Source: Clostridiales bacterium
GTDB taxonomy: Bacteria; Bacillota; Clostridia; Christensenellales; Borkfalkiaceae
Direction of reading: 5' to 3'
NCBI GenBank assembly: GCA_015055525.1
Contig: SVHZ01000004.1
Span: 187-64,186 of the forward strand
DNA: 64,000 bases
Shown here: in pieces, positions 1,258 to 63,945 of the stretch
How positions within the stretch are numbered: the first letter of the stretch is position 1
Layout: every line of letters starts with the position of its first letter
The notes under the pieces: generated by a model
The model's input: the letters and a program-made list of their open reading frames with translations, nothing else
What the model was told of the DNA's origin: nothing
Databases searched by the model: none
Position numbers and translations under genes: made by a program

Positions 1258-1971
1258 TTAATTAAAGTAGTTAAAGAACGCTGTCTTTAATGCTGTGATT
1301 GCGGTGTGCGATAATTTTAGTTCTTTGCCTGTTTTAATAAGCACGCTTGAAGTGGTTACTTTTTTAACGTGATTTAAGTTAATGATATGACTTCTTCCAC
1401 ATCTAAAAAAGCAATCAAATTCTTTTACCTTTTCGTAAAATTCAGTAGAAGTTATGCGAACGAGTATCTTTTCGCCGTTGCTTAAATAAATGCGCTGATA
1501 TTTGTCTTCGGCTTCTGCATAAAGTATCTCTTTCACGGTAAAATGGCGGTAGCCGTTATCTACTTTTATCACGATGCTATCGTTTTGGTGGTCTTTTACG
1601 CTTAGCATTGCCTTATCCATTGCAAAAAAGAAGTTTTCTTCAGTATACGGTTTTAATAGGTAATGCGTAGCGTTTACACCAAACGCTTCTAAAGCATGGT
1701 CTGTTGACGACGTTAAAAATACGATAGGACTTAAAACGTTTCTACTGCGAAGTTCGGTGGCAACACTCATACCCGTTAATCCTTGCATAAAAATATCAAG
1801 TAAGTACACGTCGTATTTTTCGCCGAGCTCGATTTTTTCAAGCAAATCCTTTGCGCCCGAAAAAAGTTCGGTTTCAATTTGGGCGTTTTTTTCTTGCTTA
1901 TACTTTGCAAGCAGAGTGGAAATCATATCCAAATAAATTTTTTCGTCGTCTAAAACTGCAATTTTTATCAT
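1258..1971 (-). CDS. LytTR-family response regulator
   Basis: 237 aa with an N-terminal receiver domain (IAVLDDE, DVYLLDIFM, LTSS, YLLKP) and a C-terminal LytTR-type DNA-binding region (FFRCGRSHIINLNHV). Confidence 0.85.
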   Translation of the reverse strand: MIKIAVLDDEKIYLDMISTLLAKYKQEKNAQIETELFSGAKDLLEKIELGEKYDVYLLDIFMQGLTGMSVATELRSRNVLSPIVFLTSSTDHALEAFGVNATHYLLKPYTEENFFFAMDKAMLSVKDHQNDSIVIKVDNGYRHFTVKEILYAEAEDKYQRIYLSNGEKILVRITSTEFYEKVKEFDCFFRCGRSHIINLNHVKKVTTSSVLIKTGKELKLSHTAITALKTAFFNYFN

Positions 1972-2082: not shown

Positions 2083-2117
2083 TAAAAAAAAGAACTCAGA
2101 CGATATATCCGAGTTCT
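2083..2117 (-). terminator. Rho-independent terminator (minus strand)
   Basis: 7-bp stem agaactc/gagttct (2091-2097 with 2111-2117), followed on the minus strand by a T8 run (plus A8 at 2083-2090). It closes the non-coding block at 2128-2504. Confidence 0.6.
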
Positions 2118-2127
2118 AATTTTCTTT

Positions 2128-2504
2128 TGACCGCTTGAAAGTGCAATTTCCTATAAATTTTTAATGTTTCAAAAAATCCCTTATAGGGAACGCCTTTACC
2201 TATCCGTTTTTGTTTTGGTTGCGGGAGATTCCCCTGCTAGGGGAAATGTCACTTGTGACAAAAGGGTTGCCGTCCCACGCTAGTGGATGGGATTTGCCCG
2301 ACTAGTGTCGGCACGGGCTATAAAATAATGGTCGATTTTTATTATATAACTACGACCTTCGGGTTATTTGGTGCAAAGCACCAACGTACCGCTAAAGCGG
2401 ATACCGATCCCCTTTCGCCTATATGCTTTTAGGTTTAGTATAAACTATCTTTGGCGAAAGCGGGCTCATAGATACCAAAAGACTTAACGCTCAATCACAC
2501 CATA
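2128..2504. other. ORF-free, GC-rich, hairpin-dense block containing fragments of the adjacent tRNA-fMet (candidate structured ncRNA or integration scar)
   Basis: No ORF is listed here. The block is visibly more GC-rich than other spacers. It holds serial short hairpins with CTAG-centred loops (cccctgctagggg, ccacgctagtgg, ccgactagtgtcgg, tgtcacttgtgaca). 11 nt, ggttgcgggag (2217-2227), are identical to the tRNA 3' end at 2548-2558. 16 nt, acgaccttcgggttat (2352-2367), are identical to the tRNA anticodon/variable region. 10 nt, cgggctcata (2461-2470), are an inverted copy of the anticodon arm. Confidence 0.5.
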
Positions 2505-2509
2505 GCAAC

Positions 2510-2544
2510 AAAAAAGCACCAACCTTTTTGGTTGATGCTTTTTT
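2510..2544. terminator. Bidirectional hairpin terminator immediately 3' of tRNA-fMet
   Basis: 10-bp stem agcaccaacc/ggttgatgct with a T5 loop, flanked by an A-run and a T-run. Confidence 0.65.
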
Positions 2545-2546
2545 AT

Positions 2547-2624
<78 letters not shown>

Positions 2625-2742
2625 ATGACTTGTGCTATTATAATACTTAAATTATCAACTTTTGTCAACTGTTTTTGCTCTTTTAATAAAATATTATTTG
2701 CGTATAATTAAATCTTTTGTCGTTTTTTCTCAACAATAAAAA

Positions 2743-2768: not shown

Positions 2769-4325
<1,557 letters not shown>

Positions 4326-4578
4326 TTCCTTAACCCCCTTTATTTCTAATATAGTTAATATTCTTATTATACAATCGATTATAACCGTTGTCAAATAGCA
4401 AAAATTAGCATAAAGTTGAAAAAAAATAGCGTTTATTTAGGAAAAGACTAAACCTTTTTCGTTGGTTTTTGTTATACGCACTTTTATTATAACAGTAACT
4501 GCGTTTAATTGCAATATAAAACTTAAACACTTGAAAGTATCTCTATTTTATGTTATTATGTAAAAAAGGAGATTTAAT

Positions 4579-5352
4579 ATGAAAATTGCTATTGTTACGG
4601 GCGCTTCGTCCGGCATGGGAAGAGAGTTCGTTGTTCAAGCCGACCAAAGATATAATTTAGATGAAATTTGGGTTATCGCTCGCCGTGAAGATAGGCTTTT
4701 AGCACTTCAAGATGAAGTTACCGCTAAAATCGTTCCTATTCCACTTGATTTAACACTTTTAGAAAGCATCGATACCCTTTCTAAAAAATTAAGCGAGGAA
4801 AAACCCGACGTTAAATTACTCGTTAACGCCAGCGGGTTTGGCAAAATGGCAAAATTTACTGAATCTGACCTTAATTCTAACGCAGGCATGTGCGACCTTA
4901 ATCTCAGAGCGCTTATCTTAATTACGCAAACCGTGCTCCCCTATATAAACGAAGGCGGAAAAATTATTCAAGTTGGCTCTATGAGTTCGTTTGAACCCGT
5001 TCCCCACCTTTCAGTTTACGCAGCAACTAAGGCTGGCGTTTTAAGTTTTTCTCGCGCGCTTGCCCACGAACTTAAAAAATCTAAAATTAAAGTTTTATGC
5101 GTTTGCCCGTACTGGGTAAAAACGGAATTTTTCGGGCGCGCAGGCGAAAAGGAAAAACTTCAAAAATTCGATATTTTATACGAATCGAATTTCGTTGTTA
5201 AAGTTGCATATAAAACTATTGACAAAACTAATAAAAACTACGTTGTTCCCGGCAAGTACGCTAAACTCTTACGAGTTATGGCAAAATTTTTAAGCCACGA
5301 CTTTATGATGAACGTTATGGACAAAATGTTCAAGTATGAAAAAACTAATTGA
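4579..5352 (+). CDS. SDR-family short-chain dehydrogenase/reductase
   Basis: 257 aa with the TGASSGMG cofactor motif and the YAATKAG (YxxxK) catalytic motif. Confidence 0.85.
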   Translation: MKIAIVTGASSGMGREFVVQADQRYNLDEIWVIARREDRLLALQDEVTAKIVPIPLDLTLLESIDTLSKKLSEEKPDVKLLVNASGFGKMAKFTESDLNSNAGMCDLNLRALILITQTVLPYINEGGKIIQVGSMSSFEPVPHLSVYAATKAGVLSFSRALAHELKKSKIKVLCVCPYWVKTEFFGRAGEKEKLQKFDILYESNFVVKVAYKTIDKTNKNYVVPGKYAKLLRVMAKFLSHDFMMNVMDKMFKYEKTN

Positions 5353-6625
5353 TTATTCCCTTTTAACAAGCGGTGAAACGATAGCCGTTGCACTCTCAGG
5401 CGGAAAGGATAGCGTTTGCCTTTTGCATCTTTTGTTGTGCGCGAAAAATCAATATAATCTCACAATTAAAGCCGTGCACGTTGACCACTCTATCCGCGGT
5501 TTAGAAAGCGAGCGCGACGCAAATTTTGTGAAAGAACTTTGTAAAAAACTGAACGTTCCGCTCAAAACTTTTAAGGTTGACGCAATAGGGTTTTCCGAGC
5601 AAAACCACCTATCGTTAGAGCAAGGCGCAAGGCTACTTCGCTATCAAATTTTCGAGCAACTCTTAAACGAAGGCTATGCAGATAAAATTGCAACGGCTCA
5701 TCATAAAAACGATTGTTTTGAAACTTTGCTCTTCAATATTTTTAGGGGTTCAGGGCTTTTGGGCGCTAGCGGAATTAAAAATATAAGCGGAAAAATTATT
5801 CGCCCTATACTTTCGTTATCAAGAGAAGAAATTGACGATTATATCGAAGAAAATAAACTTCCTTTCGTTGTTGATAGCACGAATTTTGACAGCGCTTTTA
5901 CAAGGAATTTTATTAGAAACGAACTTACGCCAAAAATTTTAGAACGCTTTCCAGACGCAGTTGAATCAACGTTTAGATTTTCAAAAATAGCGGGCGAAGA
6001 AGATGAATTTTTAGCCGAATTGAGCAAGGCTTGCTTAGAAGAAAAAGACGGTGACTATCGCTTGAAACTTTCAACTCCGCCCGTGTTATTCAAGCGCGCA
6101 ACTATCTTTGCGCTTAAAAATTTAGGGCTTGAAAAAGACTATGAATATCAACACGTTTTGAGCGTTCTTTCGCTTAAAGATAGTCAAAGCGGAGCGGTTA
6201 TAACCTTACCTAAAAACATAACGGCTACAAGAGAATACGATAGCGTTATCTTCTCTTGCAAAACGGTTGAAACGGTCGCTGAAGAAATTGATTTTGAGTG
6301 TAAGACCGTAACTTTTAACAATAAAACCATAACGATTACCGACGGGGATTTAGATAAACCTTATCTCTTATTTGATAAAGATAAAATTCCGAGCGGAGCA
6401 GTTATTAGAACTCGCCGTGACGGTGACGTTTTTACCAAGTTCGGCGGTGGAACAAAAAAACTCAAAGAGTATTTTATAGACAAAAAAATACCCCTTTCCG
6501 AACGGGATAAAATTCCGCTCGTTGCAAAAGGAAACGTTGTTTACTTAATAGTGGGGATTGAGATTTCAGACCTTGTTAGAGTAGACGATAAAACGAAAAT
6601 CAAATTGAAGATAAAGATAGTTTAG
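5336..6625 (+). CDS. tilS: tRNA(Ile)-lysidine synthetase
   Basis: 429 aa with the PP-loop ALSGGKDS and a TilS-like C-terminal domain (RTRRDGDVFTKFGGGTKKLKEYFIDKKIP). It overlaps the SDR gene by 17 nt. Confidence 0.85.
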   Translation: MKKLIDYSLLTSGETIAVALSGGKDSVCLLHLLLCAKNQYNLTIKAVHVDHSIRGLESERDANFVKELCKKLNVPLKTFKVDAIGFSEQNHLSLEQGARLLRYQIFEQLLNEGYADKIATAHHKNDCFETLLFNIFRGSGLLGASGIKNISGKIIRPILSLSREEIDDYIEENKLPFVVDSTNFDSAFTRNFIRNELTPKILERFPDAVESTFRFSKIAGEEDEFLAELSKACLEEKDGDYRLKLSTPPVLFKRATIFALKNLGLEKDYEYQHVLSVLSLKDSQSGAVITLPKNITATREYDSVIFSCKTVETVAEEIDFECKTVTFNNKTITITDGDLDKPYLLFDKDKIPSGAVIRTRRDGDVFTKFGGGTKKLKEYFIDKKIPLSERDKIPLVAKGNVVYLIVGIEISDLVRVDDKTKIKLKIKIV

Positions 6626-33220: not shown

Positions 33221-33683
33221 AGATTTTTACTCCACTTGAAAATATTTCATTTGTTAATTCAAAATTGTTTTTAATTTGCTCTTGATTTAGCAAATCAACT
33301 TTCTTTTTAAGTTCAATGCGCAAATCTTCAACAAGCCCAAAAAATCTTAAACCCGTTTCTTTAGTGGACACAAATAAATCAACGTCACTCGTAGGCGTTG
33401 CCTTGCCTTTTGCGTACGAACCAAACAAATAACAATAGTCTACTTTATAATTTGAAAATACGCGCACGCAAGCCTCCTTAATTAATTCAACGGTTAAAAT
33501 CCCCGTTTCTTCATCAATAAATCCATACTCGCTAAGCACTTGACACATTGCTTTATATTTAATATTTGATTGCTTATTTTCATCATTTTCATACTTTGCA
33601 TAAGTCCTACGAGTTACGCCTATTATAACCGACGCCTCTTCTTGAGACAGCCCTTTTTGTTTTCTAATATCTTTAAGTTTCAT
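33213..33683 (-). CDS. mntA: XRE-HTH fused to an MntA-type nucleotidyltransferase antitoxin
   Basis: 156 aa with an N-terminal HTH (LSQEEASVIIGVTRRTYAKYE) and the NTase motif GSYAKGKATPTSDVDLFV. Confidence 0.8.
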   Translation of the reverse strand: MKLKDIRKQKGLSQEEASVIIGVTRRTYAKYENDENKQSNIKYKAMCQVLSEYGFIDEETGILTVELIKEACVRVFSNYKVDYCYLFGSYAKGKATPTSDVDLFVSTKETGLRFFGLVEDLRIELKKKVDLLNQEQIKNNFELTNEIFSSGVKIYG

Positions 33684-33700
33684 AATATCACCTTGAAAAC

Positions 33701-33790
33701 ATTATATACGTTTTCCCATTTTTTGTCAATGCAATTGGGAAATATTTTCCCATTTATAAAAATTTATTTGGGAAATTTCTTCCCTTTTTA
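33701..33790 (-). promoter_or_regulatory. Consensus sigma-70 promoter of the TA cassette with GGGAAA operator-like repeats
   Basis: The minus strand reads TTGACA-17-TATAAT (plus 33724-33729 and 33701-33706). An inverted repeat gggaaatattttccc lies at 33737-33751, and further tgggaaa copies flank and overlap the promoter. Confidence 0.65.
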
Positions 33791-63868: not shown

Positions 63869-63945
63869 GGCGGCGTAGCTTAGCTGGTTAGAGCGGCCGG
63901 TTCATACCCGGCAGGTCGTTGGTTCGAATCTGACCGCCGCTACCA
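63869..63945 (+). tRNA. tRNA-Met (CAT), elongator type
   Basis: ggcggcgtagcttagctggttagagcggccggttCATacccggcaggtcgttggttcgaatctgaccgccgctacca. It forms a cloverleaf with an encoded CCA and is close to the Bacillus elongator tRNA-Met as I remember it. Confidence 0.85.

Follow-up and report, generated by a model that had tools for sequence, protein, structure and literature searches.

The initiator tRNA gene of a Clostridiales bacterium is adjoined by a GC-rich, non-coding block (2128–2546) in which pieces of that same tRNA recur, and this raises the question of whether the block is an RNA gene in its own right or a product of recombination at the tRNA. The window analysed is a stretch of 64,000 nucleotides from contig SVHZ01000004.1, and all coordinates refer to it. 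A preliminary description had placed two readings side by side: a tRNA-like structured RNA, and a scar of serial integration and excision at a tRNA-fMet att site.

The block and its pieces of the initiator tRNA

The block lies between the terminator T1 and the promoter of the LytTR response-regulator gene (1258–1971, minus strand). Its GC content is 0.39–0.52 across 2151–2500 compared with 0.23–0.29 in the flanking spacers, and the only ORFs that overlap it encode 31–49 amino acids, none being longer than 49—in agreement with its earlier characterization as GC-rich and without an ORF. The tRNA-fMet gene features one extra A in the T stem and a C1–A72 mismatch, and it is found at the syntenic position in every relative locus long enough to reach there. 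As judged by the comparison of these loci, it is the likely target (attB) of integrating elements. In the direction of the tRNA, the region is composed as follows.

2640–2668, minus strand: sigma-70-type promoter of the tRNA-fMet gene (TTGACA, 17 nt, TATTAT), matching the consensus at 11 of 12 positions and kept in relatives
2547–2624, minus strand: initiator tRNA-fMet gene, anticodon CAT, 78 nt, CCA encoded
2546–2558, minus strand: proximal 13-bp direct repeat (plus-strand TTGGTTGCGGGAG), spanning the tRNA 3′ end and 1 nt more; putative proximal att core
2506–2548, no strand assigned: bidirectional Rho-independent terminator T1, directly 3′ of the tRNA, recognized by its inverted repeat and the terminator scan
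2461–2510, plus strand: degenerate inverted copy of the 3′ two-thirds of the tRNA, in sense orientation on the plus strand
2368–2464, minus strand: module A core, 97 nt, with three hairpins, H1 (2409–2464), H2 (2386–2404), and H3 (2368–2384)
2352–2367, minus strand: 16-mer AUAACCCGAAGGUCGU, exactly matching the tRNA stretch that runs from the anticodon loop into the beginning of the T stem
2228–2351, minus strand: module B, the remainder of the tRNA 3′ half broken by two hairpin-rich insertions
2215–2227, minus strand: distal 13-bp direct repeat of the tRNA 3′ end, an exact repeat; putative distal att core
2177–2189, minus strand: terminator-like hairpin after the distal core, from the terminator scan
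2091–2117, minus strand: second terminator, just above approximately 2072, below which homology to the genome L007 resumes

The two minus-strand terminators expected after the block were thus found at the last two positions. Module B carries hairpins at 2298–2311, 2273–2287, 2248–2259, and 2231–2243 and a T-arm-like piece, GUCGGGCAAAUCCCAUC (2286–2302); loops with CTAG or TAGC, as described before, are present at 2231–2243, 2273–2287, and 2298–2311.

The block holds three exact direct copies of parts of the tRNA. The 16-nt copy (2352–2367 = 2574–2589) had been seen correctly; the copy of the 3′ end, given as 11 nt, is real but comprises 13 nt (2215–2227 = 2546–2558, the tRNA 3′ end and 1 nt more). 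The third copy, 9 nt of the T loop and stem (TGGGATTTG, 2288–2296 = 2559–2567), had been overlooked. On the minus strand, these pieces are colinear with the tRNA 3′ half, in the order AUAACCCGAAGGUCGU, about 55 nt, CAAAUCCCA, about 60 nt, and CUCCCGCAACCA; this colinearity had escaped attention as well. An inverted copy of 10 nt was known from 2461–2470 (CGGGCTCATA) and is indeed the reverse complement of 2587–2596. It belongs to the degenerate inverted tRNA copy at 2461–2510, which had not been recognized as a whole and which also contains a T-arm-like piece, plus-strand GCTCAATCACACC.

The tRNA fragments in the block are non-random. Against 2000 dinucleotide-preserving shuffles, four matches of at least 9 nt were observed compared with a shuffle mean of 0.14. 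No shuffle (0/2000) gave four such matches and none (0/2000) a 16-mer; a match of at least 13 nt occurred in 1/2000 and one of at least 10 nt in 69/2000.

Searches for a known RNA were negative. With Rfam 15 at gathering thresholds, only the window's two tRNAs match in the whole window, and at E ≤ 10 over 1950–2750 nothing above 16 bits lies inside 2200–2500, the weak matches of this permissive search falling on the tRNA or the terminators. Hence, none of the families that had been named as candidates (RNase P, tmRNA, SRP, 6S, ROOL, GOLLD, raiA, and HEARO) matches the block. ARAGORN detects no tRNA or tmRNA in it, and a scan for sigma-70-type promoters found none in it on either strand. The whole block folds only marginally better than shuffles, with z = −1.9 on the minus strand and −2.65 on the plus strand, and RNAalifold on the whole cassette yields local hairpins only, with an unfavourable, penalising covariation term. 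The mini tRNA-like acceptor that had been proposed for the minus strand is not borne out: the GUGGGA/UCCCGC pairing is missing from the minimum-energy fold, and it is unformable in the related loci L054 and L068, which have GCCGGAGA at the acceptor position and cannot pair it with CCCCGC. The reading as a tRNA-like structured RNA is not supported on these points—no Rfam or ARAGORN match, no promoter, local hairpins only, and an acceptor that is not conserved—and the block should not be annotated as a new RNA gene. For module A, a tRNA-like RNA keeps a small residual probability.

Several specific assignments were tried and rejected. Membership among tRNAs, tmRNAs, or tRNA-like RNAs was discarded on account of the missing cloverleaf and of the absence of a conserved acceptor helix closing a T-arm; a tmRNA or split tRNA, by the negative ARAGORN result and the missing 5′ acceptor strand. 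A T-box leader, prompted by an AUG segment and a GGUAC motif, has neither an Rfam T-box match nor a gene downstream. For a guide RNA of the IS110, IscB, or TnpB type, no locus has such an ORF nearby, and guides of this kind are shorter than the tRNA matches. An integron attC site was rejected for want of a conserved R′/R″ core, an ssoA with the CS-6 hexamer TAGCGT for a motif that is not kept in L054 or L068, and a small peptide in module A (MSPLSPKIVYTKPKSI) for the lack of a ribosome-binding site and a frame that is not kept in the variants.

Related loci downstream of the tRNA

TilS (5336–6625) served as the synteny anchor, the syntenic loci having tRNA-fMet upstream of SDR–TilS. Eleven syntenic tRNA-fMet loci were compared, ten obtained through TilS homologues and one, L068, from a metagenome pattern scan; a metagenome scan for the B motif with the core gave this one true homologue and one chance match. 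TilS identity to the window is 78–79% in L051, L052, and L067; 64–66% in L053, L054/L055, L062, and L073; 59% in L064–L066; 57% in L074; and 40% in L068. Near-identical contigs from several rumen and gut metagenomes (L001–L006) show no variation and hence are uninformative. A GTDB scan with the neighbouring LytTR response regulator identified as sole close relative L007, a Clostridia MAG that is the closest GTDB genome by this protein (93% amino-acid identity); its synteny is lost above approximately window position 2072, and with no tRNA there it is silent on the block. BLASTN of the block against phages and plasmids returned only 33-nt chance matches. Scans of IMG/VR gave no match to an 18-mer of A, six to a 16-mer of B, one to the H1 stem of A, and none to the inverted T-arm of the unit X described below; all seven matches are due to chance and lack extended homology. 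A homologue search with a 541-aa neighbour was swamped by collagen-repeat matches and was of no use for synteny.

The comparison shows that the DNA just downstream of this tRNA is a site-specific integration hot spot. The occupant directly after the tRNA differs among the eleven syntenic loci, and co-oriented partial copies of the tRNA 3′ part lie downstream of the intact tRNA in the window and in eight of the eleven related loci with the tRNA. The units are small non-coding cassettes, an islet with small-terminase and radical-SAM genes, and elements with a large serine recombinase. The last part of every unit is CCGCAACCA, the tRNA 3′ end copied in direct orientation, and behind it stands a terminator belonging to that unit; every small unit in the relatives begins with an inverted T-arm equivalent to that of 2461–2510. 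T1 itself is the first part of the inserted unit, and a terminator of the same type follows the tRNA in L054 and L074.

The window, L054/L055, and L068 share one architecture: terminator, inverted T-arm, module A, 16-mer, module B, and the copy of the tRNA 3′ end. In L051, the 16-mer and B are preceded by a different first module, A′, and followed by a 2.6-kb islet with genes for a small terminase, a ParB-like nuclease, and a radical-SAM protein; the 200-nt unit X comes last, and CCGCAACCA bounds each of these. In L052, X comes first, followed by the same islet as in L051 and by module A fused to an intact 43-nt tRNA 3′ half. Such a displaced half is precisely what an element that had integrated in the anticodon loop should show at its far end, and module A together with it makes a classical attR, with A as the element-side arm. 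L074 has X and then A with the 16-mer but without B. A further unit, Y (approximately 206 nt), is present in L073 and L062 and closes with 23 nt copied from the tRNA, T loop through 3′ end. L067 has no unit.

Islands with a recombinase are present at the tRNA-fMet locus of relatives, namely elements with a large serine recombinase in L053, L064, and L065, of which two (L053 and L065) also have a Mob_Pre relaxase. In L053 and L065, the last codons of the recombinase gene overlap the tRNA 3′ end, and the L053 protein ends in ...SSGCGSGI. No integrase was found in the window, in line with what had been noted: Pfam scans of 18 of its ORFs, most of them housekeeping, revealed no recombinase, and tblastn with the relatives' serine recombinases was negative. 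The relatives' small units and the terminase islet do not contain a recombinase gene either.

Segments on either side of a core recur in differing combinations. In the window, for instance, AAAACAAAAACGGATAGG comes after the distal core; in L051 and L068 it is found behind the real tRNA, and in L074 behind the core of X. Likewise, AAAACAAAAACGGAUAGGUAAA stands after the distal core in the window and immediately behind the real tRNA of L051 and L068. The order of the units differs between genomes as well (L051 versus L052). Differing combinations around cores made of the tRNA 3′ end are the signature of repeated site-specific recombination with tandem accretion.

The same holds within the small units. 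Module A is identical over approximately 80 nt in the window, L054, and L052—hosts with TilS identities of 66–78% and tRNAs that are 94–95% identical—and occurs as diverged variants in L068 and L074, which are 70–75% identical to A of the window. Module B has homologues in L051, L054/L055, and L068 and two subtypes, B1 (window and L051) and B2 (L054 and L068); B2 is 85% identical between L054 and L068, whose TilS proteins are 41% identical. The combinations found are A1 with B1, A1 with B2, A2 with B2, A′ with B1, A1 with the intact tRNA half, and A3 with unrelated DNA. The breakpoints of homology always flank the 16-mer, which therefore behaves as a second crossover core, of an anticodon-loop sublocation, the first being CCGCAACCA at the 3′ end. 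It is an att-core-like junction inside the cassette, where modules of the A and B types are swapped. As these comparisons show, A and B are horizontally mobile modules that assort independently, by exchange at the 16-mer and at CCGCAACCA, and the phylogeny of A and B is incongruent with that of the hosts.

A pure neutral scar would be an inactive, random leftover of old integrations, in which nothing but sporadic gene conversion by the neighbouring tRNA preserves the identity of the tRNA-like patches. The lack of genes, promoter, and recombinase and the degeneracy of the inverted tRNA copy fit this picture; so do the A/G position of the anticodon stem, at which the block matches the resident tRNA in six of six loci, and the downstream copy of L062, which shares the aberrant 3′ end of its tRNA. 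However, A and B are conserved over long stretches across distant hosts—about 80 nt of A at 100% in hosts with differing tRNAs, and B as given above—and their stems are maintained by compensatory changes, which is unlike neutral debris. A neutral scar is therefore improbable, and the modules appear to be more than debris. As far as the process is concerned, the earlier reading of the block as a scar left by integrations and excisions at this att site finds support in the islands of the relatives and in the block's own behaviour as a unit between two copies of the tRNA 3′ end; its wording as merely decayed does not, since the modules are conserved and horizontally shuffled.

The candidate cassette and its known counterparts

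With moderate confidence, the block is best explained as a non-coding, miniature, att-flanked cassette without a recombinase that arose from recombination at the initiator-tRNA hot spot, rather than as a stand-alone RNA gene. Relative to L051, window 2228–2558 behaves as a 331-bp recombinase-less unit between 13-bp direct repeats. In the direction of the tRNA, the cassette would comprise the terminator, the inverted tRNA copy, A, the 16-nt copy, and B ending in the distal core. T1 would be a terminator supplied by the element to the regenerated tRNA. The tRNA-like fragments would be att-core homologies at which recombinases for different sublocations of the tRNA cross over, and it is because of this role that they would be exact, colinear, and co-oriented with the tRNA. 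Williams is said to have distinguished, in 2002, sublocation classes of integrases in tRNA genes. A and B would be the conserved ends of mobile units that are exchanged at these cores. The cassette as a whole may be a miniature cis-mobilizable remnant—attP arms without cargo—that is moved or reshuffled in trans by the recombinases of incoming elements and that would offer additional landing sites at which units could accrete in tandem. The inverted repeats conserved in it would then be binding sites of recombination proteins or single-strand folds, not parts of a host RNA.

Some observations count against this explanation. Neither the window nor the relatives' small units or terminase islet has a recombinase gene. 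H2 and H3, and some hairpins of B, keep their pairing through compensatory changes, and G–U pairs such as those on the minus strand are more often met with in RNA or folded single-stranded DNA than in the arm sites of classical integrases. The conservation of B goes well past what neutrality would predict; moreover, aligned to the intact tRNA 3′ half of L052 at three tRNA-like pieces, B amounts to that half interrupted by two insertions, which is not a simple integration product. Neither a true empty site nor a circular junction was recovered.

Displaced tDNA fragments are known to mark the ends of islands (the Islander concept, PMC4383910). The loci described here resemble tRNA and tmRNA islands by having an intact tRNA followed by co-oriented partial 3′ copies with starting points in the anticodon loop, in the T loop, or at the extreme 3′ end; by an occupancy that varies among relatives; and by the 3-kb islet of L052, which ends in the intact 43-nt tRNA 3′ half. 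They differ in that the unit of the window measures only 331 bp and lacks an integrase and cargo, in that its displaced half is interrupted by two conserved insertions, and in the presence of an inverted tRNA copy.

Cis-mobilizable elements (CIMEs) are decayed elements that keep attL and attR, and they take part in tandem accretion at att sites (Pavlovic 2004; Bellanger 2011; reviewed in PMC5704250). Structurally, the unit of the window is of this kind, with 13-bp repeats at 2215–2227 and 2546–2558 and no gene in between, and the likeness extends to the tandem arrangement with other units at one target and to an order that differs between genomes. However, described CIMEs are kilobase-scale decayed ICEs or IMEs with genes, whereas the units here are 0.2–0.35 kb long, non-coding, and hairpin-rich. 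Among the tandem ssrA islands of Dehalococcoides, the 3′ end of the serine recombinase gene overlaps attL, and units without an integration module have been interpreted as CIMEs (PMC3146451). These islands share with our loci the tandem arrangement, boundaries made of a short direct repeat that derives from a structural RNA gene's 3′ end, and the recombinase overlap seen in L053 and L065; unlike them, they have tmRNA as the target and 10-kb-scale units with rdhA cargo, and no miniature non-coding cassettes are described there. Compared with tRNA-like RNAs (tmRNA, viral tRNA-like structures, and the tRNA-like domain of YrlA), the block has tRNA-derived sequence, a ...CAACCA end, and a T-arm-like hairpin, but lacks a cloverleaf, an acceptor helix, detection by Rfam or ARAGORN, a promoter, and conserved long-range pairing.

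A scar of this kind is already known, then, and what differs here is the gene-less scale of 0.2–0.35 kb, the inverted tRNA copy that starts every small unit, and the structured, horizontally shuffled cores. Mobile elements are well known to integrate into tRNA genes, and most of the finding follows from this in the ordinary way. As a worked example, it illustrates clearly how an initiator tRNA of uncultured Clostridia from the gut and rumen serves as an integration hot spot, with at least two crossover sublocations in use and small units shuffled between genomes.

Folding of modules A and B

The structure of module A was assessed with an alignment of A and the 16-mer in five sequences (R1). 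In this alignment, 95.8% of the cells pair compared with 87% in shuffles, none of which (0/500) reaches the observed value, and with 38–49% in slid controls. The covariation score is 0.279 compared with 0.108 in shuffles (0/500 reach it), in only five sequences and with palindromic protein sites expected to score alike. H1 is invariant and hence uninformative; pairs changed on both sides number two in H2 and four in H3. One stem change each in H1 and H3 gives a G–U pair on the minus strand, and H2 of L068 and L074 pairs in a shifted register that includes a U–U mismatch. In module B, some hairpins co-vary (UCCAC/GUGGG versus UCUCC/GGAGG and UUCC/GGAG), and others are lost, GUCAC in L068 and CCGAC in L054. 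The independent copies number only four or five per module, and the statistics are weak for this reason.

These stems bear on the possibility that A, B, or both encode a structured, element-borne ncRNA on the tRNA strand, expressed through terminator read-through or an unrecognised promoter, that mimics the initiator tRNA or pairs with it—for example, as a decoy for a nuclease directed at tRNA-fMet or as a regulator. The segment UAUGAGCCCG is complementary to the anticodon arm, and of this complement A keeps 10 of 10 nt and A′ of L051, an unrelated module, 13 of 14 nt. The three hairpins of A are kept in five variants with six pairs changed on both sides, L054 and L052 have a gCUUGc tetraloop, G–U pairs arise only in the minus-strand reading, a terminator follows every unit, and the A-element of L052 folds with z = −3.95. 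However, module A of the window alone reaches only z = −1.0, B folds better on the strand opposite the tRNA, and several B hairpins are lost in L054 or L068. In addition, a strong terminator separates the tRNA from the block, which has no promoter on either strand and no Rfam match; RNAalifold yields local hairpins only, with its unfavourable covariation term; and the acceptor-like helix is not conserved. The inverted anticodon piece belongs to the longer inverted tRNA copy, for which a DNA-level feature is the simpler account. Since palindromes to which dimeric proteins bind would co-vary alike, and since the sequences number only four or five, an RNA does not follow from the stems, and we consider this reading rather unlikely.

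Less likely still is that the elements using this site rely, when they are transferred or replicated, on the hairpin-rich modules folded as single-stranded DNA—as a single-strand origin, a priming site, or a structured recombination site like the attC of integrons—and that the cassette is the cis-acting end of a mobilizable element. Such a role needs no promoter, elements with a Mob_Pre relaxase and a serine recombinase are present at the same tRNA in relatives, and H2 and H3 conserve structure rather than sequence, with the bulge or mismatch of H2 being kept. One hairpin loop of the window carries TAGCGT, the CS-6 hexamer of ssoA. Yet the TAGCG loop motif is missing from the versions in L054 and L068, no relaxase or Rep gene adjoins A or B at any locus, and the BLASTN search of the block gave no similarity to plasmid or phage records.

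The att-flanked cassette stays the preferred reading, and a wider version of it can be put forward with low confidence: A–16-mer–B and its siblings X and Y may form a family of 0.2–0.35 kb gene-less, att-flanked cassettes that parasitise tRNA-fMet-specific recombinases and perhaps carry a structured RNA or single-stranded DNA module, such as an initiator-tRNA decoy or antisense or a fold for priming or recombination. If true, such cassettes would be the non-coding counterpart, for site-specific integrative elements, of integron cassettes or MITEs. Should they be actively mobilised, or encode a structured RNA or DNA, they would extend non-autonomous integrative elements to the size of MITEs and would also supply the large serine recombinases directed at this tRNA with natural att substrates of compact size.

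As a covariance model, R1 (121 positions) matches only the five known copies, at 127–149 bits, and no further copies were found over the window and 17 related loci. A 21.9-bit match at 33600–33706 was treated as chance; it overlaps the beginning of a short ORF that, in translation, looks like an Xre-type helix-turn-helix regulator.

Recombinase genes and a terminase islet at the tRNA 3' end

Large serine recombinase genes abut the tRNA-fMet gene in three of the related loci:
L053 3488-5032, large serine recombinase gene
L065 5492-7036, large serine recombinase gene
L064 5413-6942, large serine recombinase gene

In L053 and L065, the recombinase gene lies on the strand opposite to the tRNA and shares its final codons with the tRNA 3' end. 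The core, i.e. the short direct copy of the tRNA 3' end that bounds each inserted unit, is followed in these loci by the motif YTAG-N9-11-TTGAAC. The same motif occurs after the cores located before a terminase islet and looks like the recombinase half-site.

This islet of 2.6 kb is found in two further loci, in both of which copies of the tRNA 3' end flank it:
L051 4382-6971, 2.6-kb islet
L052 6230-8826, 2.6-kb islet

It encodes a small terminase (PF05119), a ParB-like nuclease (phrog_620), a radical-SAM protein (phrog_13321), and, in addition, one or two small proteins of unknown kind. No integrase gene lies within the islet of either locus, and it may represent a satellite-like or defence islet.

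Ends of the small non-coding units

Every small unit downstream of tRNA-fMet (A, A', X, and Y) opens, after a terminator, with a degenerate T-arm copy in inverted orientation, which in some units reaches as far as the anticodon arm or the D stem of the tRNA. Examples of such starts are:
L051 7238-7332, unit start with inverted tRNA copy
L073 440-470, unit start with inverted tRNA copy
L062 6900-6950, unit start with inverted tRNA copy

The opposite end of the small units is a direct tRNA copy, so that the two ends together resemble terminal inverted repeats. In L052, the inverted and direct tRNA arms form a long paired stem (z = -3.95).

The locus L062 features an aberrant tRNA 3' end:
L062 6993-7070, tRNA-fMet
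L062 6766-6790, 23-nt partial tRNA copy, 200 nt downstream of tRNA-fMet

The tRNA terminates in CCCCTGCATCCA, not CCCCCGCAACCA, which weakens its acceptor pairing. The same deviation recurs at the end of the 23-nt partial copy, which suggests duplication in place, gene conversion, or an imperfect 3' end supplied by an element.

The initiator tRNA and its CAT counterpart

The window carries two tRNA genes with a CAT anticodon, located at opposite ends:
2547-2624, minus strand, initiator tRNA-fMet, 78 nt
63869-63945, plus strand, second tRNA with CAT anticodon (elongator Met or Ile2 type)

No motifs of the block occur near the second gene. The T stem of the initiator tRNA has one additional A on its 5' side (GUG-A-GG / CCCAC, as placed by cmscan). 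All relatives examined (L051-L074) share this A, which therefore characterises the lineage rather than reflecting an assembly error. Rfam also gives a match below threshold to the Staphylococcus sRNA S774 (2605-2695, minus strand; 36.6 bits versus a gathering score of 48); it spans the tRNA promoter and the initial 20 nt of the tRNA and is probably due to the conserved tRNA-fMet 5' end within the S774 model.

Neighbouring genes and rearrangement

Between the tRNA and the neighbouring SDR-TilS genes, the window contains this gene:
2769-4394, minus strand, gene for a 541-aa protein

The protein combines an SGNH/GDSL hydrolase domain with a collagen repeat and a Listeria-Bacteroides repeat, and it matches tail-fibre-like PHROG entries. 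The gene occupies this position only in the subclade of the window, with homologues in L067, L070, and L072; in lineages outside this subclade, the tRNA lies immediately upstream of SDR. On the other side, homology to the nearest GTDB relative (L007, Clostridia bacterium HGM11431) ends at about position 2072 of the window (about 1148 in L007), just upstream of the response-regulator promoter. L007 continues beyond this point with unrelated DNA and no tRNA; a rearrangement therefore joined the two-component operon to the tRNA locus.
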